Position numbers and translations under genes: made by a program. Below the pieces are notes generated by a model, which made no database searches, was not told the origin of the DNA, and saw nothing but the letters and a program-made list of their open reading frames with translations. From Candidatus Multivoradales bacterium (GTDB taxonomy: Bacteria; Acidobacteriota; Thermoanaerobaculia; Multivoradales; JAHEKO01), in the NCBI GenBank assembly GCA_965223855.1, contig CBDCXM010000009.1, positions 2,240,001 to 2,304,000 of the forward strand: 64,000 nucleotides of DNA. Direction: 5' to 3'. Below, one piece after another: positions 7,646 through 61,427 of the stretch; positions within the stretch are counted from its first letter, which is position 1; each line of letters begins with the position of its first letter.

Positions 7646-7651
7646 ACAAGG

Positions 7652-28924: not shown

Positions 28925-28938
28925 TCTACTCTGGCGCC

Positions 28939-30210: not shown

Positions 30211-30386
30211 CCGCGCCTTCCCTCGCCGTCGGGAGCCGCCCCAGCCTTCTCTCGCTTCGAGCGCCAGGGGCTTCGCGTGCGGCCTCGCCCGCCGGGCATC
30301 CCGGCTGACCTGCCGTTCGGGGCACGATGAGGCGCCGGGGCAGGTGGGATCGTCGGTCGAGCAGAGCCTTGAGAGACTCTCCGGGC

Positions 30387-30402
30387 TGTGACATTTTTCA
30401 CA
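30387..30402. promoter_or_regulatory. CRP/FNR-family operator TGTGA-N6-TCACA upstream of sdhCAB
   Basis: Perfect TGTGA CATTTT TCACA in an AT-rich patch; -10-like TATGGT/TACATT at 30424-30434. Confidence 0.6.
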
Positions 30403-30649
30403 CACCGATATTCTGGCGCGTGTTATGGTACATTTTGTCAGCGCGGTTCAGGGCTCTTCAGGAACAACCCGAGCCGCCCCAAAATCAGGTTCCTCGCCCA
30501 TTCGGGCGTCCCCCCAAGGTGGGTTCCGGCGATACGCACGAACCCACCATTTTTTTGTCCGGTCGCATCGGCGCGCGACCGCCCTGCGAACAGGCTAAGA
30601 TGAAGTCTGAACCGACGCGGCCCCGCTGGGGGCAGGAAGGGAAGCTCCA

Positions 30650-41700: not shown

Positions 41701-41886
41701 CGCCCGATCCTGATGACGACGGCGACGACGGTCTTGGGGCTGCTGCCGATGGCGGTGGGGTTGGGAGAGGGGGCGGAGTTGCGGACGCCGATGGCGTGGA
41801 CGGTGATCGGTGGGTTGCTAACTTCGACCCTGCTGACGCTGGTGATCGTGCCTGCGGCGTACTCGTTGGTGGATCGACGCGATTGA
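38701..41886 (+). CDS. Second RND efflux permease (AcrB/SwrC-like)
   Basis: 1061 aa; GLLVDNAIVVLE, GIVVNNAI, RLRPILMT, GGLLTST. Confidence 0.93.
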   Translation: MKLIELSTRRPVTVFIFAVAAVVFGLVALGRLATDLLPDITYPSLTVRTGYDGAAPIEIESLVTRPIENAAGVVNGVVRVNSSSRADVSEVTLEFGWGTDMDLAGLDVRERLDQIELPDDADRPVLLRYDPSLDPIVRLGVSGEDDLIRLRLLAEEEIKRSLERIEGVAGVVVSGGLEEEIQVELDERRMANLGLDAGLVVTRLAQENVNLTGGRLIEGQSEYLVRTLQEIVRAEDLEEIVLTSDQGAIVRLRDVGTVVTGAKEREIVTRIDGSESVEVAVYKEGGTNTVTVSDAVQQGIDELRTELRRIDPNLELTLVSDQARYIRQSISEVLKTAAMGGILAVLVLYFFLRSWKTTFIIGAAIPISVVATFFLMYSRDISLNIMSLGGLTLGIGLLVDNAIVVLEAIQRRRDQGDDDVEAAVTGASQVGRAVIASTLTTICVFLPIVFVEGVAGQLFGDQAMTVAFSLVLSLIVALTVIPMLASRRFSPSEEGEEPAADESQGRLASIRRGISKVFFLAGVWLARGLRAVRDGIAWVVDKLLAVPLALFERGFAALAGLYAKVLDGALARPIVTVVVALALLAASLLLFPLLGSELVPEMIQGEFFVDLELPPGTRLEVTERRVRDLERFAAELDGVEMVYALVGSSNEQGGVSGERRENLAQLTLRLTPPVDRDREEALMELLREPLDRQEGLEYRFGRPSYFTFRTPVEFEIRGYNLELLTRLANEAVTRVSAIPGLSDVKSSTEGGSPELQIRFDRERLANLGLNLSDLASTVRSKVQGTIATDIQRDDRTIDIRMRAGEEFRDSVQDLLELTVAQRGKTAVPLSAVAEVAQVEGPAEIRRSEGDRIALISANLVGRDLGSVTEEIEATMAGLTLPSGFDWAMGGQQEEMETSFDSMRMAILLAIFMVYLVMASQFESLVHPLVILFSVPFSLIGVLVALTVGGIAVSIVVLIGVILLTGIVVNNAIILVDYTNSLRRDGAKKLEALRQAGKVRLRPILMTTATTVLGLLPMAVGLGEGAELRTPMAWTVIGGLLTSTLLTLVIVPAAYSLVDRRD

Positions 41887-41913
41887 GCTCGCGGGCGCGC
41901 GTCCCCTGAAACC

Positions 41914-42159
41914 GGCCCGCCTTCGAACTCCAGAAGCTGCCTCTGCGGGGGCCGGCTGCGCCGGCCCGGGAGGGGGTGTCTTCTCGGCTGGCGTCCCGCC
42001 AGCCAGAGCGCTTCGCGCTCTCGCGCGTACTCGGTAGCAGGCTCGGCAGCGCGCGGCTCTCATCGCCGTTGCTGGGTTCGGCTGCAGCTCGAGGCACCGG
42101 TGAGGGGCTCGGCGATGAGCCCCCGCTGAGCCAGCTTTCAGAAGTCGAAAGCGGGCCTA
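41914..42159. repeat. Inverted-repeat-bounded hairpin element (REPIN/MITE-like), copy 1
   Basis: 38-bp imperfect inverted arms at 41914-41951 and 42120-42157. 42020-42159 aligns without gaps to 44851-44990 with about 22 mismatches in 140 nt (hand count). Confidence 0.8.
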
Positions 42160-42190
42160 CCGGAGAGGTGGAGAAGCGATCTGCCCTTTG

Positions 42191-46888: not shown

Positions 46889-47153
46889 GGAGAAGCTGCA
46901 CGTGTCCTTACCCTCAAGGGCGACGAAGGGGTTTCTCCGCCCGGGGCATGGTCGGGCGAGGGGGCCGAGCCTGCGGCTCGGTCGTCGGCTGTCGCCGACG
47001 AGGGCCCTTTGCTTTCTGGCATCGCCGTTCGGCGACGCACCGGCCTCAACTCGGAGAAGCTGCAGCTCCCCGCTCCGTCAAGGGCGACGAAGGGGTTTCT
47101 CCGCCCGGGGTCTGGTCGGGTGAGGCCGGGTGGAGAAAGGGCTTCGTCGCCCT
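46889..47153. repeat. Direct repeat (164-bp offset) of a REP-like hairpin unit between convergent genes
   Basis: The 33-mer TCAAGGGCGACGAAGGGGTTTCTCCGCCCGGGG occurs at 46914 and 47078, and GGAGAAGCTGCA at 46889 and 47053. Copy 2 folds back (47081-47108 with 47126-47153). Confidence 0.75.
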
Positions 47154-47194
47154 GAATTGACAGGACGCGCGCCCTCTCGCAAGGCCACCTTCTC

Positions 47195-48742
47195 CTACTT
47201 GAAGATCTTGAAGAACAACCCGAAGAGCTTCGAAGCCGTAGGCGTCAACCGGGTCCGGCTCCAGGCGTCGCCCGCCTTCTTGATCACCTCGGCCTGCGTC
47301 GGGTAGGGGTGGATCGCGGAGGAGATCTTGCCGAGGCCGATGCCGTGGGTCATGGCGAGCGAGACTTCGCCGATGAGATCGCCGGCGTGCTCGGCGACGA
47401 TCGTCGCTCCGAGGATCTCGTCCGAGCCCTTCTTCACGTAGACCCGCAGGAACCCCTCGTCCTCGCCGTCGAGGATCGCCCGATCGACGCTCGACATCGG
47501 GATCTCGAAGGTGTCGAGCTCGACGCCGCGCTCCTCGGCCTCGCGCGGGTAGATGCCGACGTGAGCGACCTCGGGGCTGGTGTAGGTGCACCAGGGGATC
47601 ACCAGGTCGCTCGCCTTCTTGCGGCCGAAGAAGAGCGCGTTCTGGATCGCGATGCGGGCGAGAGCGTCTGCGGCGTGGGTGAACTTGAAGCGTGAGGCGA
47701 TGTCGCCGACGGCGTAGATCTTCTTGTTGGTCGTCTGCAGGCGGTCGTCCACGGTGACGCCGTGCTTCGAGTACTCGACACCGGCCGCCTCCAGGCCGAG
47801 GCCGTCGGTGTTGGGCTTGCGGCCGACCGAGACCAGCAGCTTCTCGACGTCGATCTCGAAATGCTCCTGGTTGCCGTGAACGAGGTCGGCATCGACCGAC
47901 AGATGCACGGTGCCGTCGTCGTTGCGCGAAAGAGTGGTGTTCTTGCCGCAGCAGTAGATCTTCACCCCGTCGGCGAGCATCTGCTTGCGGACGAGAGCGG
48001 AGGAGTCTTCCTCCTCGACGGTGAGGATGCGGTCCATCGCCTCGAGCAGGTGCACCTCGACGCCGAGACGGGCGAAGCTCTGGGCCATCTCGCAGCCGAT
48101 CGGGCCGGCGCCGATGATGCCGATCGACTTCGGCGGCTCGGTGAGGTTGAAGAGCGTTTCGTTCGTGAGGTACTCGACCTCGTCGAGACCGGGGATCGGC
48201 GGAGCCGAGGCGCGGGCGCCGGTGGCGACGATGGCGCGTCGGAAGCGCAACCGCTTGCCGCCGACCTCGACCGCATCGGAGGCGACGAAGGTGCCGTCGC
48301 CGAGGAACATGTCGATGCCGAGGCCGGAGAATCGCTTGGCGCTGTCGTGGTGGCTGATGCCGGCGCGCAGCTCGCGCATCCGTTCCATGGCGGCGGCGAA
48401 GTCCCCTTCGCCGCTCACCGGCGGGCCGCCGAAGCGCGCGGCGGCGGTGCGGGCGTCGTGCCAGGCGCGAGCAGCGCGGATCACTCCCTTGGAGGGGACG
48501 CAGCCGACGTTGAGACAGTCTCCGCCCATCAGATTGCGCTCGATGAGCGCCACCTTCGCTCCGAGCCCCGCGGCGCCGGCGGCACTCACGAGACCGGCCG
48601 TACCGGCACCGACGACGACGAGGTGGTAGCGGTCGGCCGGTTCGGGATTGACCCAGTCCGAGGGATGGACGTTGGCGACGAGTTCGCGATCGGCGGCGCT
48701 CGCCTCGAGCAGCTCGGTTTCAGGCTTGCGGAGCTCAGACAT
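47195..48742 (-). CDS. Pyridine nucleotide-disulfide oxidoreductase (MerA/LpdA-like; no C-terminal Cys-Cys)
   Basis: GAGTAG, GGDCLNVGCVPSK, GAGPIGCE, IHPYPT.AE. Confidence 0.88.
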   Translation of the reverse strand: MSELRKPETELLEASAADRELVANVHPSDWVNPEPADRYHLVVVGAGTAGLVSAAGAAGLGAKVALIERNLMGGDCLNVGCVPSKGVIRAARAWHDARTAAARFGGPPVSGEGDFAAAMERMRELRAGISHHDSAKRFSGLGIDMFLGDGTFVASDAVEVGGKRLRFRRAIVATGARASAPPIPGLDEVEYLTNETLFNLTEPPKSIGIIGAGPIGCEMAQSFARLGVEVHLLEAMDRILTVEEEDSSALVRKQMLADGVKIYCCGKNTTLSRNDDGTVHLSVDADLVHGNQEHFEIDVEKLLVSVGRKPNTDGLGLEAAGVEYSKHGVTVDDRLQTTNKKIYAVGDIASRFKFTHAADALARIAIQNALFFGRKKASDLVIPWCTYTSPEVAHVGIYPREAEERGVELDTFEIPMSSVDRAILDGEDEGFLRVYVKKGSDEILGATIVAEHAGDLIGEVSLAMTHGIGLGKISSAIHPYPTQAEVIKKAGDAWSRTRLTPTASKLFGLFFKIFK

Positions 48743-49544
48743 GCTGTGCCTCTCCTTCCGGATTCGTCTCTTGCGCAGACTGGCTTTGCACCTGCTCGTC
48801 GAGCGCCCGCTTGGCGATCCGGCCGACGTAGATGGCGACCGCCACCGCGGCGACGAGGCCGACGGCGAACGTGATCCAGCCGCCGGCTCCACGCTCGACT
48901 TCTGCCCCTCCCGCTACGGCGGCGAGGCTGCCGATCGCGCTGCCGTAGTAGACGTAGAGGAACGTCCCCGGGATCATGCCGACGGAAGCGGCGACGTAGT
49001 GCCAGAAGCTCACCTTGGTGAGCCCGAGCCCGTAGTTCATGAGGTTGAACGGGAAGATCGGGGCCAGCCTCAGCAGGGTGACGATCTTGAATCCCTCGTT
49101 GGCCACCGCGCCGTCGATCGCCGCGAACTTCGGGTTGCCGGCGATCTTGTTCTCGACCCAGCCGCGCGCCACGTAGCGGGCGACGAGGAACGCCAGTGCC
49201 GAACCGATGGTGGCGCCGAGGAAGACGATCACGGTCCCCTTGGCGAGCCCGAAGATCGCTCCTGCCGCCAGCGTCAGGAGTGACCCGGGAATGAAGCCGA
49301 CCGTGGCGACGGCGTAGCCGAGAACGAAGACGACCGGTCCCCAGACGCCGAGCCCTTCGACCCACTCGGCGAATTGCGGGATGTAGCCTCCCAGCTGCTT
49401 GCCGAGGTAGAGGATGCCGCCGAGAGCGACGATGCTGACGACGATCTTGAGCGCGAGGCCGGTCTTTGAGGCCTTGGTGTTCGAACCGGCATCGCTCGAA
49501 CCTGCATCGCTCGAACCCCTGTCGGGGCCAGCCGCTTCAGTCAT
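48735..49544 (-). CDS. TVP38/TMEM64 (DedA/VTT) membrane protein
   Basis: PGSLLTLAAGAIFG, LLRLAPIFPFN..NY..GLT, GMIPGT. Confidence 0.9.
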   Translation of the reverse strand: MTEAAGPDRGSSDAGSSDAGSNTKASKTGLALKIVVSIVALGGILYLGKQLGGYIPQFAEWVEGLGVWGPVVFVLGYAVATVGFIPGSLLTLAAGAIFGLAKGTVIVFLGATIGSALAFLVARYVARGWVENKIAGNPKFAAIDGAVANEGFKIVTLLRLAPIFPFNLMNYGLGLTKVSFWHYVAASVGMIPGTFLYVYYGSAIGSLAAVAGGAEVERGAGGWITFAVGLVAAVAVAIYVGRIAKRALDEQVQSQSAQETNPEGEAQHV

Positions 49545-49700
49545 GGGAACACTCCTGTGGGTGGGGTGGGAGGCAGCACGGCGCAGGTGAGCGTCGCGAG
49601 CCGTCTGCACCACTTACGAGACTGTCGACGCGGCGGATTGCCGCCACGAGCGGCCGGTCCGGGGATCTGATCCCCGGCGGCGAGTGCCGCCCGGCGGGAC

Positions 49701-50012
49701 TCAGGCGGCGACCCAGAGCGCAGCGGCGAGCAGAATGCCGCTCAGGCCCAGGAACATGCCGCCGACCGCGGCGAGGTTGCCCCACAGGGTCCCCTCCTTG
49801 GCGGTCTTGCCGAGGATCATCAGGCTGATCGAGGCGATCGCGAGCTGGACGAGCACGAACAGGAAGGTCGTGGAGCCGGAGAGCGAGGCGCCCGGCTCCT
49901 GGCCGGCAGCGGCGCTCCAGTTCATCCCGGCGATGACGGCGGCGACCGCCAACACTGCGAGAGCAATGAGGTCCCATCTCTTGGGCTTGGGGCCCAGTGA
50001 AGGAAGTTTCAA
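49701..50012 (-). CDS. Small hypothetical membrane protein (~3 TM)
   Basis: Hydrophobic segments and GC3 bias; start uncertain (TTG 50012). Confidence 0.55.
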   Translation of the reverse strand: MKLPSLGPKPKRWDLIALAVLAVAAVIAGMNWSAAAGQEPGASLSGSTTFLFVLVQLAIASISLMILGKTAKEGTLWGNLAAVGGMFLGLSGILLAAALWVAA

Positions 50013-50086
50013 GGCACGCTCCTCCCGTACGGTTCGGTTCGTGGAACGCGAGGATGGTAGCACGCCGCAGAGGGGCCGCTGCAGAC

Positions 50087-50118
50087 GAAACGAGCCCGGC
50101 GCAGACGCGCCGGGCTCG
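50087..50118 (-). terminator. Intrinsic terminator after the BON-LysM gene
   Basis: 12-bp perfect stem (50091-50102 with 50107-50118) followed by TTT on the minus strand. Confidence 0.6.
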
Positions 50119-50144
50119 GGAAAGTCACTGCCTGCGGAGCGGCT

Positions 50145-50636
50145 TCAGCCGTCCTGCGGGATGCGCAGCACCTGACCGGGGAAGATCTTGTCGGGGTGCT
50201 CGAGCATCGGCTTGTTGGCCTCGAAAATCTGGTGGTACTTGTTGGGGTCGCCGTAGTGCTCCTTGGAGATCTTCGACAGGGTGTCACCCGAGACGACGGT
50301 GTAGAAGACCGCCTTCGGGCCGGTGACCTCGAGACGGTCGTCCACGGTAGCGATGCCGGCGGTGTTGCCGATCGCCAGGGCGATCTTCTCCTTGGTCGCC
50401 TGGTCGGCGACGCCGCCCGCCACGCGCACGGTGTCACCGTCGACGTGGATCTGCAGGTCGTCGATGTCGAAACCGAGCGCCTTCACGTGGCGCATCAGGC
50501 TGAGCGCCCGCATCGCGTCGTTGGCTGCGTCAGCGCGCTTCTCGGCCTCGGTCGGCTGCGGCGGCGCCTTGACGGAGTCGTCGTCCTGGCCGAGCAGCTT
50601 GGCGCCGGCTTCCTTGATGAATGAAATGAGTCCCAT
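50145..50636 (-). CDS. kbp: BON-LysM protein (Kbp/YgaU-like K+-binding protein)
   Basis: MGLISFIKEAGAKL N-terminus, EKIALAIGN.AGI, YTVVSGDTLSKISK, IFEANKPML..PDKIFPGQVLRIP. Confidence 0.85.
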   Translation of the reverse strand: MGLISFIKEAGAKLLGQDDDSVKAPPQPTEAEKRADAANDAMRALSLMRHVKALGFDIDDLQIHVDGDTVRVAGGVADQATKEKIALAIGNTAGIATVDDRLEVTGPKAVFYTVVSGDTLSKISKEHYGDPNKYHQIFEANKPMLEHPDKIFPGQVLRIPQDG

Positions 50637-50694
50637 CGGAAATCCCTCCTCTTGTGGAGTCTATGTGCGTGAAGTTGCCGAGTGCGCTGTGCGC

Positions 50695-51291
50695 TCAGCG
50701 ATTGCGGAGCATCTTGCCGAGAAGGCCGGCTCCGAGAGAAGCGACATCGTCGGCGAAACTGCCGTCTCCGTCGCGGTCCAGCAGTTTACCGACCATGTCC
50801 ATCGCCTGTCCCGCCTCCGACGGCGAATGGTCGCGCTCACCGCGCAGCATCGATTCGAGACCTCGCGAATCGAGCCCCGAGCCGCGGCGCTGCTTGCCGA
50901 GGGCACCGAGGACGATCGGCGCCAGCATGGCGAGCAGCTGCCCGGCCTTGCCCGAATCGAGGCCGCTCATCCTGCCGAGACCGCTCTCGACGGCGCCCCG
51001 GCTGTTGCCGAAGACGTGGCCGAGAATGCCGTCGCCGCTGCGGCCGGGGCCGCGGGTGACGTAGCCGGCGAGATCGTCGAGGATGCTGCCGTCGTGGTCA
51101 CGGTCGAGTGCCGCGCCGAGCGCATCCGCGCCGCCGCTCTGCTGAGTGTTGCGCGCGAGGCCGCCGAGCAGCATCGGCAGCGCGCCGGCGATCGCCTTCG
51201 AAGCGAGGTCGTCGTCGATGCCGAGCTGGCGGCCGATCTGCCGGGTGGCGTCGCCGCCGAGCTGCTGCATCAGAGTATCCATCAAAGACAT
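50695..51291 (-). CDS. DUF937 family protein
   Basis: ALPMLLGGL, DHDGSILDDL, GILGHVFG, LLAMLAPIVLG, LDRDGDG. Confidence 0.8.
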   Translation of the reverse strand: MSLMDTLMQQLGGDATRQIGRQLGIDDDLASKAIAGALPMLLGGLARNTQQSGGADALGAALDRDHDGSILDDLAGYVTRGPGRSGDGILGHVFGNSRGAVESGLGRMSGLDSGKAGQLLAMLAPIVLGALGKQRRGSGLDSRGLESMLRGERDHSPSEAGQAMDMVGKLLDRDGDGSFADDVASLGAGLLGKMLRNR

Positions 51292-51318
51292 GGGTGATTC
51301 TCCTGGAAGTTGTGTGGA

Positions 51319-53166
51319 TCAGGCGTCTCGCGAGCGCTCGAGCAGTGCCTGCGCACGGTCGCGGCCGCCGAGCCCGAAGGCGAGACCGACCGCGAGGGCG
51401 GCACCGCCGACGACGGCGGCGACGACCATCTGCACGACGCCTTCACCGACGCCGAGCTGGCTCAGGCCCATGCTGGCGCCGAGGAAGATGATCGCGTAGC
51501 GGGCGATGTTCGACAGCAGCGCCTGGTGCTCGGAGCCGCCGAGAGCGCTGGAGACGAGATTGCCGACATAGTTGCCGATCGACAGCGCCGCGAGGATCAC
51601 GACGAGGCCGACGGCGAGGTTCGGCAGGTAGCGGATGAGGTCGCCGACCAGCAGCGACAGGCGATCGAGGTTGAGCGTCGCCAGTGCCTGTTCGGCGGTC
51701 AGAAGCAGGATGAGCGCCATCACGACGGTGCCGCCGATGGCCGACAGCGAGGCGCCGCCGTCCTTCGGCTGCAGGAAGTGCAGGCCGAACTTCGACGGCA
51801 GAGCGTCGAAGCCGACGCCGCTGAGGAACGAAGTGACGATTCCTCGAACGGTGTTGGCGATGTAGTAGCCGATGGCCACCACGATCAGACCGCCGAAGAT
51901 CAGCGGCACGGCCGACAACAGCTGCTCGAGGGTGTTGCGCACCGGGGTCGAGATCGCCTCGATCTTGAGTGCGTCGACGGCGGCGACGATCACCGGCACG
52001 AGAATGAAGAAGTAGGCCACCGTCCCTGCGATCTCGGAGACCGGCTTGACCCCTTCCGAGCGGCCGAAACCGACACGGGCAGCCATTCGATCGGCGCCGA
52101 CCGCCGCCAGGAAGTTGGTCGCGATCTCTCGAACCACGGTGGCGACGATCATGCCGATGCCGACGAGCACGATCGCGGCGACGATGTTCGGGATGTAGCC
52201 GAGCGCCGTCGTCAGCATTCCGGTGAGCGGAGCGACCAGCGACTGCTGGCCGAGCGCCTCGAGGAACGGGGGCAGGGCGAAGAGCAGGACGGCGTAGAAC
52301 ACCAGCCGGCCGATCATGCTGCTCGCCATCACCGTCTCGCCCTTGACCTCGCGCGGCGGGAAGTACTTCTCGGTGCGCTGGTCGAAGCCGACGGCGTGGA
52401 GGCCGCGGGTGGTCAGCATCTTCAGGATCGACGCGACGATCCACGCCACGAGCAGGATGACGAACGCCTTGAGCAGCGCCGGGATGAGCCCGAGGATCGT
52501 GGAGACGACCCCCTGGAGCGGACCCGCCACCATCTGCAGCTCCAGGGCGTCGAAGAAGGCGACGAAGCCGAGCAGCAGGATCACCCACTTGACGACCGCT
52601 CCGCCGAGCTCGTCGACGGTGGTCTTCTCGCCCTTCTCGTTCTCGAGGAACCTGCCGAGACCCCAGTCACGGGCGGCACGCTCGTCGACGGTGGTGAGGC
52701 TCAGAAGCTTCGTGGTTCCGGCACCCAGAGCGAGCGCCAGGATCCAGGCGACGGCGAGGATCAGCAGCGCCTTGAGCAGCACCGGCAGGGCGGCGGCGAA
52801 GCGCTCCCACATCGGCACCAGTGCCTCGGACCACAGTGCCTTGCCCTGGTCGCGAACGCCGGCCGTACCGGCCTGCGCGGCCTCGGCCATCTCACCGGCG
52901 GCGCTGCCGACCGCGCCGGTGATCGTGGTCGGCGGATTGCCGGCGGCGGGCTCGGCAGTCTGCGCCGGAGTCGGCTCCGCCGCTGCGGGTTCCGTGGCGG
53001 CCGGCTCCTGAAGCGCCGGCTCCTGAAGCGCCGGGTCCTGAGGCGCGGGTTCCTGCGCGGCCGGTTCCGTCGCGGCGGGCTCCTGAGCGAGCACCGGCGC
53101 GGCGACTCCGGCGAGGGCGACGACGAGCGCGAAGCCGAGAATCTGCAGTCGAGTTCTCTCGAGCAT
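51319..53166 (-). CDS. CmpX-like / MscS-associated conserved TM-helix repeat membrane protein
   Basis: Signal peptide, (Q/T)EPAx repeats, ~5 repeats of the IP..(A/G)..IL..(G/A)..(I/V)A unit, ending LAFGLGGRD. Confidence 0.8.
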   Translation of the reverse strand: MLERTRLQILGFALVVALAGVAAPVLAQEPAATEPAAQEPAPQDPALQEPALQEPAATEPAAAEPTPAQTAEPAAGNPPTTITGAVGSAAGEMAEAAQAGTAGVRDQGKALWSEALVPMWERFAAALPVLLKALLILAVAWILALALGAGTTKLLSLTTVDERAARDWGLGRFLENEKGEKTTVDELGGAVVKWVILLLGFVAFFDALELQMVAGPLQGVVSTILGLIPALLKAFVILLVAWIVASILKMLTTRGLHAVGFDQRTEKYFPPREVKGETVMASSMIGRLVFYAVLLFALPPFLEALGQQSLVAPLTGMLTTALGYIPNIVAAIVLVGIGMIVATVVREIATNFLAAVGADRMAARVGFGRSEGVKPVSEIAGTVAYFFILVPVIVAAVDALKIEAISTPVRNTLEQLLSAVPLIFGGLIVVAIGYYIANTVRGIVTSFLSGVGFDALPSKFGLHFLQPKDGGASLSAIGGTVVMALILLLTAEQALATLNLDRLSLLVGDLIRYLPNLAVGLVVILAALSIGNYVGNLVSSALGGSEHQALLSNIARYAIIFLGASMGLSQLGVGEGVVQMVVAAVVGGAALAVGLAFGLGGRDRAQALLERSRDA

Positions 53167-53238
53167 GGTCCTACTCTCCTTCCCAGATGGCCTTAGGCCG
53201 AGTGATACCTGCAAGGATACCGCTCGCCTGATGTTTCT

Positions 53239-53264
53239 GACCGTTCCGTCCCCGGATAGTCACA
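53239..53264 (-). promoter_or_regulatory. Putative ECF-sigma promoter TGTGACT-N14-CGGTC (drives cmpX-like-DUF937-kbp)
   Basis: Minus strand reads TGTGACT ATCCGGGGACGGAA CGGTC, ending ~70 nt before ATG 53166. Confidence 0.65.
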
Positions 53265-53348
53265 CCTCCGCCGCCTCAGTGGCCTCGCGGCCGCGTCCGG
53301 TAGGATCGTCAGGCTGCAATCCATTGTCAGAGGGAACCGGGGTCGGCA

Positions 53349-53374
53349 TGTGACTTCGTCACCGCTCGCCGGTC
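53349..53374 (+). promoter_or_regulatory. Putative ECF-sigma promoter TGTGACT-N14-CGGTC (drives mscL-DUF3465-sigX-crfX-cmpX)
   Basis: TGTGACT TCGTCACCGCTCGC CGGTC, ending ~70 nt before the mscL ATG. Confidence 0.65.
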
Positions 53375-53447
53375 CAGAGAAGCTCAGGTCGGTCATCCGG
53401 GCGCCGGTCGAATCCGCGTCCATCTTTGAAAAGGGGAGGAACCACGT

Positions 53448-53870
53448 ATGTTGAAGGAATTCAAGGACTTCGCCGTCAAGGGCAACGTGCTCGACATGGC
53501 GGTCGGTATCGTCATCGGCGGTGCTTTCACGCCGATCGTGAAGTCGCTCGTCGACGACCTGCTGATGCCGATCATCGGCCTCTTCACCGGCGGCGTCGAC
53601 TTCACCGACAAGTTCATCGTGCTGAAGGCCGGTGCCGAGGGAGCCGCCTACTCGACGCTCGCCGCGGCGAAGGAAGCGGGAGCGGTGACGCTCAACTACG
53701 GCGCCTTCATCAACACGATCTTCACCTTCCTGATCGTCGCTTTCGCGATCTTCATGATGGTCAAGACGTTCAATCGCTGGAAGGAAGAAGAAGCCGAAGC
53801 GCCGGCCGCTCCCCCGCAGGACATCGTGCTGCTGGAGGAGATCCGCGACGCACTGAAGTCCAACGGCTGA
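53448..53870 (+). CDS. mscL: Large-conductance mechanosensitive channel
   Basis: [41 protein letters not shown]. Confidence 0.97.
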
Positions 53871-53873
53871 ACC

Positions 53874-53914
53874 CGGGCGCGGCCCGGCCTCACGGTCGGG
53901 CCGCCTCCCGTTTT
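53874..53914 (+). terminator. Internal terminator/attenuator after mscL
   Basis: GCGGCCCGGCC-TCAC-GGTCGGGCCGC stem followed by TTTT. Confidence 0.55.
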
Positions 53915-53933
53915 CGTCAGGAGTGCGCTTTTC

Positions 53934-54368
53934 TTGAATCGCAGTCGGCAGCAGTTGCTGAGACTCGTCGCCGTCGGCCTGGTGGCCGCCGGCGCCTGGC
54001 TCTACCAGCAGTACGGGGCCGGTACGTCCGTCGGCGTCTCGGGCGAACTCGCCGAGGTGATCCGAACGCGCGCTTCGGGCGCGATGGTCGAGGTCGAAGG
54101 GGTGGTTTCCAGGACGCTTTCGGACGACCTCCACGGCGATCGCCATCAGCGGTTCATCCTCGATGCCGGTAGCGGCAACACCCTGCTCGTGGCTCACAAC
54201 ATCGACCTCGCACCGAGAGTGCCGATCGATCTTGGCGACGAGGTGACGGTGCGCGGCCAGTACGAGTGGAACGACAAGGGTGGCGTGCTGCACTGGACCC
54301 ATCACGATCCGGACGGGTCGCGCCGCGACACCGGCTGGATCCGTCACCAGGGGCGTACCTACGAATGA
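53934..54368 (+). CDS. DUF3465 family protein
   Basis: L.DD..G.RHQRFIL, TLLVAHNIDLAPR, G.YEWN..GG..HWTHHDP, GWI.H.G. Confidence 0.85.
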   Translation: MNRSRQQLLRLVAVGLVAAGAWLYQQYGAGTSVGVSGELAEVIRTRASGAMVEVEGVVSRTLSDDLHGDRHQRFILDAGSGNTLLVAHNIDLAPRVPIDLGDEVTVRGQYEWNDKGGVLHWTHHDPDGSRRDTGWIRHQGRTYE

Positions 54369-54996
54369 CCCTCCAGGAGCTCGAGGACCGGGAGCTGGTC
54401 GAGAAGGTGCGCCGGGGGCCGGGCGACACCCGACCGTTCGAGGTGCTGGTCGAGCGCTACCAGTCGAAGATCCTCGCCAACTGCCGCTATCTGACCCGTT
54501 CGCCGAACGACGCCGAGGACCTCGCGCAGGAGGTCTTCGTCAAGGCGTTCTTCGGGCTCAAGCGCTTCGAAGGGCGCTCCAAGTTCTCGACCTGGCTGCA
54601 GCGCATCAAGATCAACCACTGCCTGAACTTCAACCAGAAGCGGCACGGCAAGCACATGGTCGACATCGAGGAGCCGGGCATGGAGGTCGCGGCCGGTCTC
54701 TTCGACGAGGCGCGCGGCGAGAAGGACCTCGAGAGCTTCGACGAACGGCGCCGCATCGCGCGAGTGCTCGACGCCATGTCGTCCACCCTGAGGGTCCCGC
54801 TCCTGCTGCGCGACCTGGACGGCATGACCTACCAGGAGATCGCCGAGCAGCTCGACATCGGGCTGTCGGCCGTCAAGATGAGAATCAAGAGAGCCCGTGA
54901 GGAGTTCCGTCAGCGCTACGACGAGGTCGTGGCCGGCGAGGTTGCGGCGGCCACCTGCTCGAATCAGGCCGGAGCGCGGCGTCGGAGATCGCATGA
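54365..54996 (+). CDS. sigX: ECF sigma factor, Pseudomonas SigX-like (apparent 1-nt indel near 3' end)
   Basis: ELEDRELV, AEDLAQEVF, GLKRFEGRSKFSTWL and YQEIA..L.IGLSAVKMRIKRA resemble SigX as recalled. The probable true stop is the TGA of the ATGA overlap at 54993-54996, one base out of frame. Confidence 0.75.
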
Positions 54997-55290
54997 GCGA
55001 CGAGCGCTTCGACGGCCTCGAGGAGGACGACATCGACACCGGCCAGCCGATCGCCCAGCTGGCGTCGCTGCGCGAGGAGCCGCAGATCGGGTTCTTCGGA
55101 CGGATCCGGCGCTCGATTCGAGCGGCGCCAGCTCGGCTCCGACATGGCCGAGCTGTCGGTGTCCGGCCTCGCGGCGGTGTTTCTCGAGCTGCTGCGTGCG
55201 ATGTTCGGGCTGGCCGAGGAAGCCTCGGCGAGGCCTCGAGGGACCAACCACGAGTCGGAGCAAGGACCGGGTAAAGGAGACGCAACATGA
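54993..55290 (+). CDS. Small CrfX-like putative anti-sigma factor (one frameshift near 55120)
   Basis: MSDERF...FFGRIRRSI. Removing one base continues ERRQLGSDMAELSVSGLAAVFLELLRAMFG... to TGA 55290, which overlaps the next ATG. Confidence 0.5.
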
Positions 55291-56119
55291 ACGAAACTCT
55301 GGCCGTCAAGGACCAGCTCGTCCTCACGTTTCGCAATCTGATCACCGAGATCGTCGCGGCGACTCCGAGGGTGCTCGTCTGGCGATCGCGCTCTTTCGTC
55401 GTTGCCATCCTGTCGTGGCGAAGGGGATTCGAGAAGCTCCTCAAGATGCCGTGCTGACGAGGATCCGGTTCGACAGCCTGCTGTCCCGAAGGTCGGTGTC
55501 GATCAGGCGCTGCAGCGGATCGGGCTGCGCCAGCTGATGAGCGACTTCATCCCGCGGACCGCCTACTTCCTGCTGCTGTTCCTGTTTGCGCGGGCTGCGG
55601 CCGACGCGCTCGGTCTGACGGCCGTCTCCAGCGCCATCGGCACCTTCCTCGGCTACGTGCCCAACCTGATCGCCGGCATCGTCATCGTGCTGCTCGGCAG
55701 CACGGCCGGGCAGGTGGCCGGGCTCGGCGGTCTCGACGGCAGCGGAAAACTCGGGCATCGAGTTCGGCTCCACCCTCGGCAAACTCGTCTCGGCGCTGAT
55801 CCTGTTCGTGGCGGGCATCATGGCGCTCGGGCAGCTCCAGGTCGACACCGACATCATCCGGGTTGTCACGACCTGCTTCCTCGCCGGCCTGGCGCTCGCC
55901 TTCGCGCTTTCCTTCGGCCTGGGGACGCGCGAGATTGCCCGCAACGTCATTGCCGGCTTCTATGCCCGCAAGGTGTTCGAGGTCGGCAAGGAGATGGAGA
56001 TCGGCGACGAGCGTGGCAAGCTGGCGGCGATCACGCCGACCCAGATCCTCCTCGAGCAGGACGGTCGGACCGTGGCGATCTCGAACAGCGTACTGGTCGA
56101 TCAGGTGATCAAGCAGTAG
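55287..56119 (+). pseudogene. cmpX: CmpX/MscS-like mechanosensitive channel protein, interrupted by several frameshifts
   Basis: SD AAAGGAG with ATG 55287. Fragments in different frames: GYVPNLIAGIVIVLLG, LAFALSFGLGTREIARNVIAGFY, and MscS-like G.E..IG...G....I.....ISN. Confidence 0.7.
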
Positions 56120-56126
56120 CCGGCCG

Positions 56127-57563
56127 TCAACGTCCGGCGGGCTGGTGCTCGGGCCGCAGCAGGTCGAAGACGGTCTTGACCGGCGCGAACGTCGCCGCCG
56201 GGACCTCGACGAACAGCGTGTTCCACCGGGCCATCGCGCCGTTCCACAGCCCGGGCCGCTCCAGCCCCAGCAGCGCCCTGCCTTCGTGACTCTTGCGGCT
56301 GACGAAGGCGGTCGTGGGGTCGACGAACGCTTCGAGGTCGAAGGCGGTGCCGTCCGGGCGCCGCAACACGCAGACGAGATCGACCGGGTTGAAGTGCGTG
56401 GAGCCCGCGACGATCGCCGCCTGATCGGAATCGCCATGGTCGATCTGCGACGACTCGACGATCTGCCGCGATTCGCTGCCGTCGGCGTGCCGCACCCAGA
56501 ACGGGCCGCCGCCGGGCTCGCCCTCGTTGCGGACCATGCCGCACAGCCTCAGCGGCCGTGACAGCCGGTCGTGCACCCACCTCTCCAGATCGCCGGTTCG
56601 CGGAGCGTCGAGATCGAGCGCCGCGGCGACGCGCGGTACCGCTTCGGACATCGGAAGCGTCGCGGCGGTCGTCAGCTCCCGCGAGCGAAGAACCGCTTCG
56701 CCGATCAGATGGCGCTTCCACGAGACGACTTCCGCCTGGCGCCACTCCGGCTGGATGTTGTCGATGTTCTTGATCGTGACGAGGTCGCCGTCGAGGCGCT
56801 GGAGGTTGTCGAGCAACGCTCCATGACCGGAGGGCCGGAGCAGGAGCTCGCCTGCAGAGGTGCGGAACGGCCGGCCTTGCAGATCGATCGCCAGGGTGTC
56901 GGTCGCCGGACGTTGGGTGGAGAAGTCGACCTCGAGGCTCCCGGCGAGATCGCTCGAGCGCTCGAGCGCACCGCGAAACGCCCCCATGTGCTCGGGAGAG
57001 ACGGTGAAATGTGCGCGCCCGGCGGTACCGGCGAGACCACCCGCTTCCACGAGGTGCTCCTCGAAGGCGGTGCGGCTGCCGTCGGGGTAGGTGTGGAAGC
57101 TCAACAGGCCCTTCGGCAGGGCGGCGTAGCCCAGGCCCGCCGGATCGAGCAGAGCCCCGGCCCAGTCGGCGGCGCGGTCGGTGTCGCGGCCGGTCCGGCG
57201 AATCGCCGCTTCGAGACGTTCGCCGAAAGAGAACGAGCGCCGCTCGGCGAAGAGCCGGCGTACGGCCTCCGGCTCACCTTCCATGAGCTCCCGGAACATC
57301 CGCGTCGCGGCGCCGGAGGCGGGCACGAACTTGGTGATTCGCCGCGCTTCGGAAGCCTCTCGCCACGCTTCGAGCCGGCGGCCGCCGTCCGCGTCGTCGA
57401 GCTGATGGATGCCGTCGCCGACGGTGCAGGCGCGCGCCAGTCTCAGCGGGCGGGGCGGTTCTCGCAGCAGCTCGAGCTGGCGTTGAGCCTCCTCGGGAGC
57501 GATGCCGCGCCTCTCGAGCTGGTCGAGGTCCTCGGGGCGGAGGGAGGCGGGGGAGGAAGGCAC
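56127..57563 (-). CDS. DUF4301 family protein
   Basis: KFVPASGAATRMF, LPKGL, FEEHL.E, RPSGHGALL.NL, KNIDN, CGMV.N.GEPGGGPFW, THFNPVDLVC, LWNGAM, F.PVKTV.DLL. Confidence 0.9.
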   Translation of the reverse strand: MPSSPASLRPEDLDQLERRGIAPEEAQRQLELLREPPRPLRLARACTVGDGIHQLDDADGGRRLEAWREASEARRITKFVPASGAATRMFRELMEGEPEAVRRLFAERRSFSFGERLEAAIRRTGRDTDRAADWAGALLDPAGLGYAALPKGLLSFHTYPDGSRTAFEEHLVEAGGLAGTAGRAHFTVSPEHMGAFRGALERSSDLAGSLEVDFSTQRPATDTLAIDLQGRPFRTSAGELLLRPSGHGALLDNLQRLDGDLVTIKNIDNIQPEWRQAEVVSWKRHLIGEAVLRSRELTTAATLPMSEAVPRVAAALDLDAPRTGDLERWVHDRLSRPLRLCGMVRNEGEPGGGPFWVRHADGSESRQIVESSQIDHGDSDQAAIVAGSTHFNPVDLVCVLRRPDGTAFDLEAFVDPTTAFVSRKSHEGRALLGLERPGLWNGAMARWNTLFVEVPAATFAPVKTVFDLLRPEHQPAGR

Positions 57564-57697
57564 GAGGTTCGGGAGCGGCGGCTGTCGGACGCACCGGACG
57601 GCTGTCGATGCCCGGCCCCGCGACGAGCGCGAGTATACCGGCGTACAATCCTGCCCGTTCCGACTACCGACCCACCGTCCGATCCCACCACCGACCG

Positions 57698-58531
57698 ATG
57701 TCGATCTTCCAGGCGATGATCCTCGGCCTCGTCCAGGGGCTGCTCGAGTTCCTGCCGATCAGCTCGTCCGGCCATCTGATCCTCGCTTCCAGGGTGCTCG
57801 GATGGCCCGATCAGGGACTCGCGTTCGACATGGCGGCCCACGCCGGTTCGATGGTGGCGATCGTCGCCTACCTGCGGCGCGACGTCGTCGCGCTCGTCCG
57901 GGGGGCCCTCGACCTCGTCCGATGGCGGCACAGCGACGAGGCGCGACTGGCCCTTCAGTTGGCGGTCGCCTCGATTCCGGTGGTGGTCGCCGGTGCGTTG
58001 CTGATCGACTTCGTCGCCACCTCCGGCCGCAGCCTCGCGGTGCTGGGAGTGACGTCGATCCTCTTCGGTGCTCTGTTGTGGGCGGCCGACCTCTACGCTC
58101 GCCGCACGACTGCGGGTAGAAAGGACGTCGATGCTGAGACGGTGCGGGCTCCATGGTCGTGGCGATCGATGCTCGTCGCCGGAGCCGCTCAGGCGCTGGC
58201 GGTGATCCCCGGGACCTCCCGCTCCGGGGTGACGATGTCCGCAGCTCTCTTCGACGGCCTGTCGCGCACCCGCGCGGCGCGCCTCTCGTTCCTGCTGTCG
58301 CTGCCGGTCGGCCTGCTGGTGGCCGCCAAGGACGGCTGGGAGATCGTCGCCGACCCGTCGGCGGTCGGGGGCTGGGCCGCCCTCGGTGTCGGCTTCGTCG
58401 CGGCCGCGGTCTCCGCGTATCTCGCCATCGACTGGCTGCTGCGCTGGTTGAAGCGCCGCGGTTTCGGCGGCTTCGCGCTCTACCGCATCGCCCTCGGCGT
58501 CGTGCTCCTCATGTTCCACTGGAGGGGCTGA
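57698..58531 (+). CDS. uppP: Undecaprenyl-diphosphate phosphatase
   Basis: GLVQGLLEFLPISSSGHL, PGTSRSG.T, A.R.SFL. Confidence 0.92.
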   Translation: MSIFQAMILGLVQGLLEFLPISSSGHLILASRVLGWPDQGLAFDMAAHAGSMVAIVAYLRRDVVALVRGALDLVRWRHSDEARLALQLAVASIPVVVAGALLIDFVATSGRSLAVLGVTSILFGALLWAADLYARRTTAGRKDVDAETVRAPWSWRSMLVAGAAQALAVIPGTSRSGVTMSAALFDGLSRTRAARLSFLLSLPVGLLVAAKDGWEIVADPSAVGGWAALGVGFVAAAVSAYLAIDWLLRWLKRRGFGGFALYRIALGVVLLMFHWRG

Positions 58532-58597
58532 CCACTTCACCGTGCCGTAGCTCCGAATCGTGCGCCACCTTCCACCCCAGCCGTCGGGTCCGCCGAC

Positions 58598-59185
58598 GTG
58601 ACCGCGACCCCCAGTGACGCGCAGGCGATCGCCGCCGCCCTCGAGGGGTCGGAGGAGGGGTATCGCCTCCTCGTCGAGCGCTATCAGAAGCCGGTTCTGA
58701 GCCTGATCCGGCGGATTGTGCGCGACGCCTCGTGGGCCGAGGATCTCGCTCAGGAGGCGTTCGTCAAGGCGTTCCGGGCGCTGGACACCTTCCAGCAGCA
58801 GCGCAAGTTCTCCAGCTGGCTCTTCAAGATCGCCCACAACACGGCGCTCGACGCGCTGCGCCGCAAGCGGATCGACACGGTGCCGCTGGAAACGTCGGAT
58901 CCGGACCGGGGCGATTTGCTAGATTTGCTGCCTGGCGACGACCTCGACACCCCCGAAAGCGCACTGCGCAGCCGCGGCCTGGCCGCGGCGATCCAGACGG
59001 CCATCGGACGGCTGCGGCCGGACTACCGGAGCGCCGTGGAGCTGAGGTTTCTGCAGGGCCTCGCCTACGAGGAGATCGCCGGGATCATGGACCTCCCGCT
59101 GGGGACGGTGAAGACCCACCTGCACCGGGCGCGCAAGGCGCTGATGGAGCATCTGAGCGAGTCGGGATGGACCCCCGAAGGATGA
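58598..59185 (+). CDS. ECF sigma factor (SigW/RpoE-like)
   Basis: AEDLAQEAF, KFSSWLFKIAHN, YEEIA....LPLGTVKTHLHRAR. Confidence 0.9.
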   Translation: MTATPSDAQAIAAALEGSEEGYRLLVERYQKPVLSLIRRIVRDASWAEDLAQEAFVKAFRALDTFQQQRKFSSWLFKIAHNTALDALRRKRIDTVPLETSDPDRGDLLDLLPGDDLDTPESALRSRGLAAAIQTAIGRLRPDYRSAVELRFLQGLAYEEIAGIMDLPLGTVKTHLHRARKALMEHLSESGWTPEG

Positions 59186-59236
59186 GCGAAACTTCCCGCG
59201 ACGAGGTCGCGTAGGGCCCAGAGAGCGGAAACCACC

Positions 59237-59746
59237 ATGCGAAACGACCGAAAACAGCTCGAATCCTGGTTCCAGGCGGAACGCAGCGGCGATACCGCGG
59301 CGGCGGAGCGCGCGCTGGGAGCCCTGCTTCAGGGGCTCCCCGAGGCGCGGGTACCCGCCGGCTTCGCCGGCGCCGTCGTCGAAGCGGCTGGCGTCGGTCG
59401 CGCCCGCTGGTGGGAACGTCATACCTGGCTGTGGCGGGCGGCCTTCGTCGCCTGGGCCCTGGCCGGTTTCCTGAGCTTCGCCTGGGTGTCGAGCCTCCTG
59501 GTGGGCGTCGTTCAATCAGGGCAGGCGGTCGGGCTCGGCTCGCGCCTGCTGGTGGTCGGCGGACGCATCGCCTCGGAGGCTCTCGCGGCCGCCGATGCGA
59601 TCGGGCGTGCCAGCCAGACCTTCACCGGGGCCCTCACCGGCCCTCAACTTCTGAGTTTTCTTTGGATCTGTGCGATCTCGATGGTGATCGCCGCGAGGGC
59701 GCTGAGTTCGATCATCGCCCCCGAGAGGAGTCTTCGTCATGGCTGA
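59237..59746 (+). CDS. Putative membrane-anchored anti-sigma factor
   Basis: Directly follows the ECF gene; soluble N-terminus with P.GFA..V, then TM helices. Confidence 0.55.
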   Translation: MRNDRKQLESWFQAERSGDTAAAERALGALLQGLPEARVPAGFAGAVVEAAGVGRARWWERHTWLWRAAFVAWALAGFLSFAWVSSLLVGVVQSGQAVGLGSRLLVVGGRIASEALAAADAIGRASQTFTGALTGPQLLSFLWICAISMVIAARALSSIIAPERSLRHG

Positions 59747-61427
59747 CCGTGCCTCCCGTATGTTTCGAATCTCGTCCCGTCGCAGCAGGTTGGCGGCGCT
59801 GTTCATGCTGACCCTGGCCCTGCCGACCCTGGCGCTGCTGGCTGCGACGCCGGCGGTCGCTCAGGAGAGTGCAGGCGATCTGATCGACGACCTGCAGCGC
59901 TACTTCACCGTGCTGCCGCTGAGCGACGGCATGCTGCTTCAGCCGCTCGACCAGGAATCGAGCCCGAGGACGGTCGAGGTTTCCGATGCCGGCATCGCGC
60001 TCGACGGCGCTCCGGCCGGCGACGACGAGGTCCGAGTTCGTCTCGGCGAGGCCGCTCCCGTGGTGCTCGCCGCAGCTCGCCTCGATGGTGCAGGGCGGGC
60101 CGAACTGCTGGCGCTGGCGCTCGGTCTGGCGACTGCCGAGGACGACGTTGCCGAGGACGCAGCTGCCGAGGACCCGGCCACCGACGATCCTGAGATCGAG
60201 GATGAAGACGCGGCCGACGCCGAGGCGGCCGACGAAGAGAATTCGCTCGTGGTTTCCGACGACGCCATCGACGAGGACGCGGAGAAGAGGGAAAGCCGGC
60301 GTCGCCGTCGCCGCTCCTCGAGCGGTGACACCGAGATCGTCGTCGGCAGCAATCGCACGATCGAGAGCGACGAGATCGTCGAGAACGTCGCCCTCTTCGG
60401 CGGCTACCTGAAGATTCTCGGCCGGGTCGAAGGTGACGCGGCGGTGGTCGGAGGGAGCGTGACCGTCGAAGGCGAGGTCACCGGCGACGTGACCGCTGTG
60501 GGCGGCGTCGTGAGGCTCCTCGACGGTGCGCACGTCATGGGCGACGTGGCGAGCGTCGGCGGTGAGGTCTACCAGGACGACGGAGCCCGCGTCGACGGCG
60601 ACATCGAAGACGTCAGCGTGCACACGAACTTCAACTTCGTTCCCTGGACCAACTGGCGCGACTGGGATCACTACCGCTTCGAGCACTCCTTCAGCCCGTG
60701 GGGCTGGTGGCGCGGGCTCGGCTGGAAGCTGGTGCGGATCCTCTTCCTCGGGGTGCTCGCCTGGCTCAGTCTGCTGGTCTTCCGCCGGCCGATCGGTCGC
60801 ATGGAAGAGCGCCTCGAGGCCGAGCCGTGGAAGTGCGGGCTCGTCGGTCTCCTGGCCGTCGCCCTGTTCGTGCCGATCGTCGTTCTGCTGTGTCTCTTCC
60901 TCGCAGTGTCGATCATCGGCATTCCGCTTCTGATCGTCGTCCCGTTCGGAGTGCTGGCCGCCGTCGTGGTCGCCTGGCTCGGTTTCGTTGCCGTCGCGGC
61001 CAGGATCGGCGAGGCACTCGAGAAGAAGTTCTCCTGGCAGCTCGGGAGCCCCTTCTGGGTGGTGCTGCTGGGGCTCGTCGCGGTGCTCTCGCTGTCGCTC
61101 GTCGGCGATCTCCTCAACTTCGGAGTGGCGCCGCTGCGCTTCATCGCCGGCATGTTCCTGTTCTTCGGCGGAGTGGTCTGGTTCGCGTCCTGGGTGCTCG
61201 GCACCGGAGCGGCGGTCCTGACCCGCTTCGGTACCTCGGAGACCTGGAATCGCGCCGAGGAGTGGAGCGCGCCGTTGCCGCCTGTACCCGCATCGGACGC
61301 CTCCGCAGACGGAGTCGACGAGGGTGACGAGAGCGCGGACCCGGTGTGGGACGAGAGTCCGTTCGACGACGGGGACGACGAGAGCGAAGCCGACACCGAC
61401 GAGGATCGGGACCGAGAGACAGAATAG
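59739..61427 (+). CDS. Membrane protein with bactofilin/polymer-forming beta-helix repeats and multi-TM C-terminus
   Basis: Signal peptide, acidic linker, GG...I.G.V.GD...VGG repeats, ~5 TM, acidic tail. Confidence 0.75.
   Translation: MADRASRMFRISSRRSRLAALFMLTLALPTLALLAATPAVAQESAGDLIDDLQRYFTVLPLSDGMLLQPLDQESSPRTVEVSDAGIALDGAPAGDDEVRVRLGEAAPVVLAAARLDGAGRAELLALALGLATAEDDVAEDAAAEDPATDDPEIEDEDAADAEAADEENSLVVSDDAIDEDAEKRESRRRRRRSSSGDTEIVVGSNRTIESDEIVENVALFGGYLKILGRVEGDAAVVGGSVTVEGEVTGDVTAVGGVVRLLDGAHVMGDVASVGGEVYQDDGARVDGDIEDVSVHTNFNFVPWTNWRDWDHYRFEHSFSPWGWWRGLGWKLVRILFLGVLAWLSLLVFRRPIGRMEERLEAEPWKCGLVGLLAVALFVPIVVLLCLFLAVSIIGIPLLIVVPFGVLAAVVVAWLGFVAVAARIGEALEKKFSWQLGSPFWVVLLGLVAVLSLSLVGDLLNFGVAPLRFIAGMFLFFGGVVWFASWVLGTGAAVLTRFGTSETWNRAEEWSAPLPPVPASDASADGVDEGDESADPVWDESPFDDGDDESEADTDEDRDRETE

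Follow-up and report, generated by a model that had tools for sequence, protein, structure and literature searches.

Divergent TGTGACT-N14-CGGTC motifs as probable autoregulatory promoters of a CmpX-linked ECF sigma factor in an acidobacterial mechanosensitive-channel locus

Promoters that extracytoplasmic function (ECF) sigma factors read have been described as bipartite, typically with AAC in the -35 element, a spacer of 14-17 bp and often a CGT-type -10 element (PMC5758882). In Pseudomonas aeruginosa, the ECF sigma factor SigX is encoded next to CfrX (84 aa) and CmpX, and it controls these neighbours (PMC7641640, PMC7826278). The SigX response has been linked to membrane or osmotic stress, and ECF control of mechanosensitive-channel genes has been reported in the same species (PMC10965496). 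The corresponding group, ECF102, is listed for Bacteroidetes and Gammaproteobacteria only and is tied to a mechanosensitive channel gene (Casas-Pastor et al. 2021). Its entry in the supplement of that work gives the predicted motifs as not conserved and proposes indirect autoregulation. The SigX consensus has likewise been called 'not precisely defined' (PMC7641640), and a consensus upstream of SigX-induced operons was not found (PMC3875570). Here we examine a pair of divergent TGTGACT-N14-CGGTC motifs in an acidobacterial genome, Candidatus Multivoradales bacterium (GCA_965223855.1). The motifs separate two operons headed by mechanosensitive-channel genes in a 64,000-nucleotide stretch of contig CBDCXM010000009.1 (positions 2,240,001 to 2,304,000; G+C 68.5%), hereafter the window.

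We propose that the two motifs are promoters of a SigX-like ECF sigma factor whose gene, starting at 54365, lies within the mscL operon, and that this factor would control a channel and envelope regulon together with its own synthesis. We give this reading a probability of about 0.7. As far as the compared sequences go, the motif is real, non-random, conserved and directional, and it probably acts as an autoregulatory promoter for a CmpX-linked ECF sigma factor. The gene switch is a clean one of an ordinary bacterial type.

The motif pair and its conservation

Direct reading of the sequence finds TGTGACT-N14-CGGTC once on each strand of the intergenic region (Table 1), exactly where the initial annotation had placed it. 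The two copies face outwards, with their -35-like boxes 84 bp apart. Comparison of the copies bears out that their spacers are unrelated, so the pair is not a duplicated element. Each copy had also been said to end about 70 nt before its start codon, and the distances are 73 nt to the mscL ATG (53448) and 72 nt to the ATG of the msc-like gene (53166).

The pattern is far rarer by chance than in this window. A search allowing up to one mismatch returned three matches, all of them exact, against 0.38 expected, and none of 100 shuffles reached three. A separate calculation gives 0.0085-0.0096 expected exact copies per window, against the three observed. Among 2000 dinucleotide-preserving shuffles of the window, 17 contained at least one copy and none contained two or more. 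The heptamer TGTGACT occurs three times on the two strands of the window, and CGGTC follows at +14 in all three cases. When two mismatches are allowed, nine matches appear (the three exact copies and six with two mismatches), the one-mismatch class being empty. All six two-mismatch matches lie within genes and lack the GTGAC core; none of the three exact copies falls in a called gene, with gene calls that are rough and leave about 23% of the window outside called genes. Rather than occurring at background frequency within open reading frames (ORFs), a possibility that the initial annotation had raised against itself, the exact copies within the window separate cleanly, and the third copy is non-genic. 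Since the first two copies served to derive the pattern, independent tests come solely from the third copy and from those in other genomes.

Such copies in other genomes were sought through the channel protein. A search of genome contigs, queried with the msc-like protein's conserved part, returned two loci, L001 and L002. L001, from a metagenome-assembled genome (MAG) of the Thermoanaerobaculia, encodes a channel protein that is 82% identical and has the same divergent layout with all genes intact. One of its arms carries mscL, the DUF3465 gene, an ECF gene (204 aa), an 87-aa ORF and a cmpX-like gene (273 aa), and the other carries the msc-like and DUF937 genes. The L001 copy facing mscL is exact, TGTGACT-N14-CGGTC at 9386-9411 (-), and the copy facing the msc-like gene reads CGTGACT-N14-CGGTC at 9488-9513 (+). 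These copies are 76 bp apart and end 63 and 89 nt before their start codons. When the intergenic regions of the window and L001 are aligned, 23 of 24 fixed bases are identical, compared with 12 of 28 spacer bases (Fisher p = 5.8e-5) and 86 of 229 bases in the rest of the region (p = 1.4e-8). This combination of conserved boxes and diverged spacers supports the behaviour predicted for a directional bipartite promoter.

The second locus, L002, comes from a Sphingobacteriales MAG whose channel protein is only 28% identical. An ECF gene, a 73-aa ORF and a cmpX-like gene follow one another in the same order, and TGTGAC-N16-GTC ends 12 nt before the ECF start codon. This is the only TGTGAC-N15-18-GTC match in 20.5 kb, among five TGTGAC words. 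About 550 bp of short tandem repeats (L002 8290-8835; units like catcactcc and atcgccaca) lie directly 5' of this promoter-like site.

Across the six sites compared, GTC is present in every one and the -35 core is always GAC. CG precedes GTC in five of the six, so that the second box reads CGGTC rather than CGTC. Spacing is identical in all five strong sites (16 nt when counted from TGTGAC to GGTC).

Two other explanations of the motif can be weighed on this evidence. The first is a dimeric transcription factor bound to a long dyad, TGTGAC-N17-GTCACA, with the promoters lying elsewhere. A dyad of the form GAC...GTC is found in all sites, and two of the six extend it to TGTGAC/GTCACA; moreover, TGTGA is a half-site of the CRP type, the CRP consensus being TGTGA-N6-TCACA. 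Judged by eye, however, that spacing is absent, site 1 reading TGTGA-N5-TCACC and the other sites having no second half-site. The base after GAC is T in all six sites and the base before GTC is G or C, while the bases after GTC vary, and this asymmetry of the conserved positions is unlike a dyad operator. Two opposite copies at 84 bp (76 bp in L001) would be superfluous for a symmetric operator. Each retains its orientation and lies at a similar distance from the gene that it faces. Nor did a consensus scan find another promoter-like sequence in the region. We regard an operator of this kind as improbable.

The second explanation, to which we assign very little weight indeed, joins housekeeping promoters with chance or repeat-element similarity. 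GTGACT does share TGAC with TTGACA, the -35 hexamer of sigma70 promoters. No TATAAT-like hexamer follows 16-18 nt downstream, however, the consensus scan of 47000-58700 found no sigma70-type promoter, and the conserved CGGTC would be left unexplained. Chance is excluded by the shuffles, by the distribution of mismatches and of matches relative to genes, and by conservation in L001; a repeat element is at odds with the unrelated spacers. Among other candidates, the GGAAC words of the intergenic region were considered as EcfG-type boxes and rejected by eye, their distance to any CGT being wrong.

Which sigma factor reads the motif

The initial annotation had taken the motif as the recognition sequence of a SigX-like ECF, by which the sigma factor at 54365 in the mscL operon was meant, and this assignment is supported by what the genomes have in common. 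The ECF gene lies within the plus-strand operon in both the window and L001, and in L002 the motif-like site stands directly 5' of that locus's own ECF gene. In all three loci, then, the motif is located 5' of the operon that encodes the sigma factor. A sigma factor gene inside the operon behind its own motif is the classic autoregulatory layout.

The window encodes a second ECF sigma factor (58598), 5 kb away both here and in L001, and it is the obvious rival reader. On that account the motif would still be an ECF-type promoter, read by this factor or by one encoded outside the window, and the operon's sigma factor would merely be a target. Sigma cascades exist, and the link between the motif and one particular sigma factor is one that we infer from sequence. 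The motifs of the SigX group are, moreover, given as not conserved, with indirect autoregulation proposed (Casas-Pastor et al. 2021, supplement). The motif is, however, missing upstream of the second ECF gene in both the window and L001, whereas in L002 a similar motif directly precedes the ECF of the module. A promoter of its own was also sought for the second ECF and rejected, as no upstream block is common to the window and L001 and the gene closely follows bacA in both.

The proteins themselves provide a further distinction. The module ECF of the window is 33% identical to the second window ECF and 32% identical to the L002 ECF. Its sigma4 helix reads SAVKMRIKRAR, and that of the L002 ECF reads SATK/MRLKRAR, where the slash marks a one-base homopolymer frameshift across which the helix was read; nine of the 11 residues are identical. 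The corresponding helix is GTVKTHLHRAR in the second window ECF and GTVRSRIFRAR in E. coli sigmaE. The helix common to the module ECFs is therefore absent from the second ECF, and its residues S, A, K, M, R, I, K, R and R are invariant in 35 aligned members of the clade.

Published residue-to-base data can be laid over these helices, with the residue register taken from an alignment to E. coli sigmaE and GTGAC placed on GGAAC. RpoE residues 171, 172 and 84 are reported to set bases -31, -34 and -13/-12, respectively (Todor et al. 2020, PMC7776599). In these measurements, which come from other ECF backgrounds, Lys171 goes with C at -31 (0.98), and Met172 with no preference for G at -34 (A 0.32, T 0.31, C 0.22, G 0.15). 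Ser172 goes with G at that position (0.83), as does Thr172 (G 0.74, T 0.05), and Asn84 favours NG (CG 0.40, TG 0.19, GG 0.08, AG 0.06; NG sum 0.72) (PMC7776599). By the sigmaE alignment, the module ECF carries Lys171, Met172 and Asn84, and the second ECF carries Thr172. In the motif these positions are T (-34), C (-31) and G (-12). With the register inferred in this way, the data appear to suit the module ECF and to disfavour the second, whose Thr at the Ser172 position predicts G where the motif has T. Weighing both sides, we consider it rather unlikely that an ECF other than the one at 54365 reads the motif.

If the operon-encoded sigma factor is the reader, the small ORF behind it becomes a candidate for its control. 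The small ORF product has a hydrophobic C-terminal segment (17-residue Kyte-Doolittle mean 1.89) and no Pfam or NCBIfam match. The small ORFs of L001 (87 aa) and L002 (73 aa) occupy equivalent positions and are not similar to each other. A complex of the L001 ECF (35-row alignment) with the L001 small ORF product was modelled from a thin alignment on the partner side (three rows), only three relatives being present in the protein collection searched. The model scored 0.77, against 0.14 for the best control. Among solved complexes, 116 of 157 attained that mark, as did 2 of 215 mismatched pairs, counts that are only rough here because our own alignments were used. Part of the score may also reflect known structures, because sigma/anti-sigma complexes have already been solved. 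The runs share at least 96% of their contacts, with a partner pLDDT (predicted local distance difference test) of at least 68. In the model, residues 15-46 of the small ORF product contact both sigma2 (26-67) and sigma4 (131-189). The modelling supports binding of the ECF by the small ORF product, a candidate anti-sigma factor.

We suggest the following mechanism. RNA polymerase carrying the ECF from 54365 would read both divergent promoters, with the sigma4 helix contacting TGTGACT as the -35 element and sigma2 contacting the -10 core GTC within CGGTC. Transcription would start about 6-9 nt past CGGTC. The plus-strand promoter would drive mscL, the DUF3465 gene, the sigma factor gene, the small anti-sigma-like ORF and the cmpX-like gene, resulting in positive autoregulation. 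The minus-strand promoter would drive the msc-like channel homologue, the DUF937 gene and the BON-LysM gene, and the regulon would also take in the third copy, at 7620. By analogy with SigX, CfrX and CmpX of P. aeruginosa, the small ORF product might hold the sigma factor inactive, perhaps together with the CmpX-like protein. Membrane tension or hypo-osmotic stress would then release the sigma factor, which would turn on a small regulon made up of genes for mechanosensitive channels and the envelope.

Several observations count against this account. With GTC fixed at -12 to -10, the C of GAC comes to lie at -30, short of the reference position by one, and the same register makes -13/-12 GG (0.08) instead of the preferred CG (0.40). 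The conserved AAC of ECF promoters is lacking, the -35 core being GAC, although AAC is described as typical and not as obligatory (PMC5758882). Over its whole length, the window ECF is at least as distant from the L002 ECF (32%) as from the paralogous second ECF (33%). Two of the six sites, at window 7620 and in the msc arm of L001, read CGGTCACA and have partial dyad symmetry. Two of the three TGTGACT words in L001 (4545 + and 19884 -) have no CGGTC behind them, and the comparison as a whole comprises one close and one distant genome only. Finally, frameshifts disrupt both the small ORF and the cmpX-like gene in the window, and the stop codon of the ECF is missed.

Gene content, frameshifts and further sites

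The features of the window are collected in Table 1. The ECF gene, the small ORF and the cmpX-like gene were missed by gene calling based on G+C content at third codon positions (GC3). The same procedure left gaps at 9990-12035, 23730-25591, 28924-30650 and 41886-43312, which may hold genes of lower GC3 or further frameshifted genes.

Table 1. Positions of promoter motifs, genes and other elements in the 64,000-nt window
Feature	Position	Strand	Remarks
Predicted promoter copy 1	53349-53374	+	TGTGACT-tcgtcaccgctcgc-CGGTC; predicted -35 53349-53355, 14-nt spacer, predicted -10 53370-53374; faces mscL
Predicted promoter copy 2	53264-53239	-	TGTGACT-atccggggacggaa-CGGTC; predicted -35 53264-53258, predicted -10 53243-53239; faces msc-like gene
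Third exact copy	7620-7645	+	About 45 kb distant; intergenic, flanked by divergent M20 peptidase (-) and aconitase-family (+) genes
Candidate structured RNA	7652-7885	+	Downstream of third copy; could be a small RNA or the aconitase-family gene's long leader
mscL, large-conductance mechanosensitive channel	53448-53870	+	Pfam MscL E = 1.3e-46; first gene of plus-strand operon
DUF3465 protein	53934-54368	+	Pfam E = 6.3e-35; stop overlaps ECF start (ATGA at 54365-54368)
ECF sigma factor, proposed motif reader	54365-~54940	+	sigma2 and sigma4 intact; 78% identity to L001 ECF (204 aa)
Small ORF, candidate anti-sigma	54993-55290	+	Frameshifted at ~55119; intact 87-aa orthologue at L001 7489-7749 (-)
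cmpX-like short MscS-type membrane protein	55287-56119	+	Three tblastn segments (frames 3, 1 and 2) with the 273-aa protein of L001 as query
msc-like membrane protein	51319-53166	-	Five PF05552 stretches; Pfam E = 1.8e-51; NCBIfam msc 271 bits (cutoff 100); first gene of minus-strand operon
DUF937 protein	50695-51291	-	Domain annotation
BON and LysM protein	50145-50636	-	NCBIfam 'peptidoglycan-binding protein LysM' PRK11198, 183.7 bits (cutoff 134)
Intrinsic terminator of minus-strand operon	50091-50118	-	12-pair stem, T-rich tail; best terminator in 47000-58700
Second ECF sigma factor	58598-59185	+	Putative anti-sigma at 59237-59746; no link to the motif

Relative to L001, the window carries several insertions of one or two bases at about 55119-55720 (within 54900-55760). 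As a consequence, the small ORF spans two frames and the cmpX-like gene three (at least two frameshifts), and the frame of the ECF passes the L001 stop position and continues to 55537. The sigma2 and sigma4 domains of the ECF are unaffected. The frameshifts and the missed ECF stop point either to decay of the regulator module in this genome or to faulty assembly. Long ORFs elsewhere in the window are intact, and the decay or the poor assembly is therefore local. In L001, the intact cmpX-like copy matches Pfam PF05552.

Three side observations concern the neighbouring genes. The msc-like protein has, in its N-terminal part (52400-53166, minus strand), a signal-peptide-like start followed by a long repeat region rich in Pro, Ala, Glu and Gln, whose length and sequence differ from L001. 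The 5' leader of its gene shares with L001 a 12-nt block on the transcribed strand, GTATCCTTGC, followed by GG (window 53198-53209, L001 ~9533-9545); the block begins 19-20 nt past the -10 box and could be an operator or a leader element. The second ECF gene directly follows bacA/uppP, and the region 58598-61427 also encodes a 562-aa protein with a weak bactofilin match, an arrangement kept in L001.

The third copy reads CGGTCACA, and its reverse strand (7623-7648) gives TGTGAC-N17-GTC, ending 64 nt from the start of the M20 peptidase gene (7558; distance from coordinates). Because the site is near-palindromic (TGTGAC...GTCACA), it could act in both directions. Downstream of it, the fold of 7652-7895 has a z-score of -4.36, with none of 200 shuffles as good, and a 19-pair hairpin at about 7841-7881 is followed by UUUU. 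Coding signal is weak here, the only sizeable ORF, of 50 codons (7699-7848), showing a GC3 of 0.68 where called genes show 0.80-0.92. Rfam gave no match at gathering score in the whole window, and a permissive search of 7560-8050 gave one sub-threshold match on the other strand (M23, 20.2 bits against 41.2). A sigma-driven small RNA or a long leader at 7652-7885 is possible. It is doubtful that a fourth site, AGTGACT-N14-GCGTC at 50104-50129, is a promoter, since the region's strongest terminator hairpin (50091-50118) is formed by the spacer and -10 box of this site.

Significance and comparison with known systems

We know of almost no experimental work on gene regulation in Acidobacteriota. 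Judged by titles and abstracts, a literature search for ECF sigma promoters with TGTGAC brought up no paper on such a promoter, and searches on ECF promoters in Acidobacteria or on mscL brought up nothing on this system. For a large ECF clade, the locus would provide a consensus promoter sequence and an initial outline of the regulon (mscL, two MscS-like proteins, BON-LysM, DUF937 and DUF3465), the homologues of the ECF numbering 2185 proteins at E <= 1e-10, with the best 120 of the 2185 being 56-81% identical to the query. Since the gene context resembles that of SigX, CfrX and CmpX, SigX-type wiring could become clearer with the help of the motif and of the small candidate anti-sigma factor. 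The sharp specificity of the sigma/promoter pair also makes it a candidate orthogonal switch.

The locus is of interest for the clear-cut consensus that it gives for a CmpX-linked ECF clade, for its minimal candidate anti-sigma factor and for an RNA that may be driven by the sigma factor. Tentatively, and with a good deal of doubt, we extend the proposal to the clade as a whole. Its CmpX-linked ECFs may have a sharp, directly autoregulated consensus with TGTGAC as the -35 element and a helix SAxKMR[IL]KRAR from Acidobacteriota to Bacteroidota. With these might go an anti-sigma factor of about 87 aa that belongs to no family and has a hydrophobic C-terminus, and a channel-centred regulon, maybe including an RNA of about 235 nt (7652-7885).

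Two well-known promoter types invite comparison with the motif. The -35 consensus of E. coli sigmaE is GGAACTT, which GTGACTT of the window resembles. SigmaE is the closest solved sigma factor (1or7, E = 1.7e-26), and the two share the bipartite layout and TC in the -10 element. They differ in the sigma4 helix, in positions -34/-33 (T and G here, G and A in sigmaE) and in the small ORF of no known family that stands in place of RseA. For Bacillus subtilis sigmaX, the -35 element is TGTAAC, one base different from TGTGAC. The sigmaX, sigmaW and sigmaM promoters of that species are broadly similar in a short -35 element ending in AC, a spacer within the 14-17 bp given for ECF promoters and a -10 element of about the CGTC/CGAC type (PMC5758882). 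They differ in that the motif described here has a GAC core and a CGGTC box with an extra G, in an unrelated organism and with another regulon. With ECF promoters as a class, the window motif agrees in having two short boxes at a fixed spacing and in its spacer range, GAC in place of AAC being the exception.

The gene neighbourhood is closer to that of SigX. As in the cfrX-cmpX region, an ECF is accompanied by a small protein of no known family (87 aa in L001) and a short CmpX-type membrane protein, and a mechanosensitive CmpX-like gene lies beside the sigma factor gene in the window (frameshifted), L001 and L002, as in ECF102 (PMC7826278). The small ORF parallels CfrX in position and size. 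The order here is sigma factor, small ORF and cmpX, preceded by mscL and the DUF3465 gene, which differs from SigX, and no OmpA/OprF-type domain was found among the annotated neighbours that would correspond to the OprF-like porin characteristic of subgroup s1. Against the NCBIfam SigX model NF007222, the ECFs of the window, L001 and L002 score 111.6, 101.8 and 69.7 bits, respectively. For the window ECF, the RpoE model scores 118.7 bits (cutoff 236), with SigX second-best. With all three SigX scores under the 194-bit cutoff, SigX-group membership is not established; we call the operon's ECF SigX-like on the strength of its gene context and the sub-threshold match to the SigX model. The window belongs to Acidobacteriota, a phylum beyond those listed for ECF102. 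It also differs from SigX and ECF102 in its motif, which is sharp and lies in front of the operon of the sigma factor itself.

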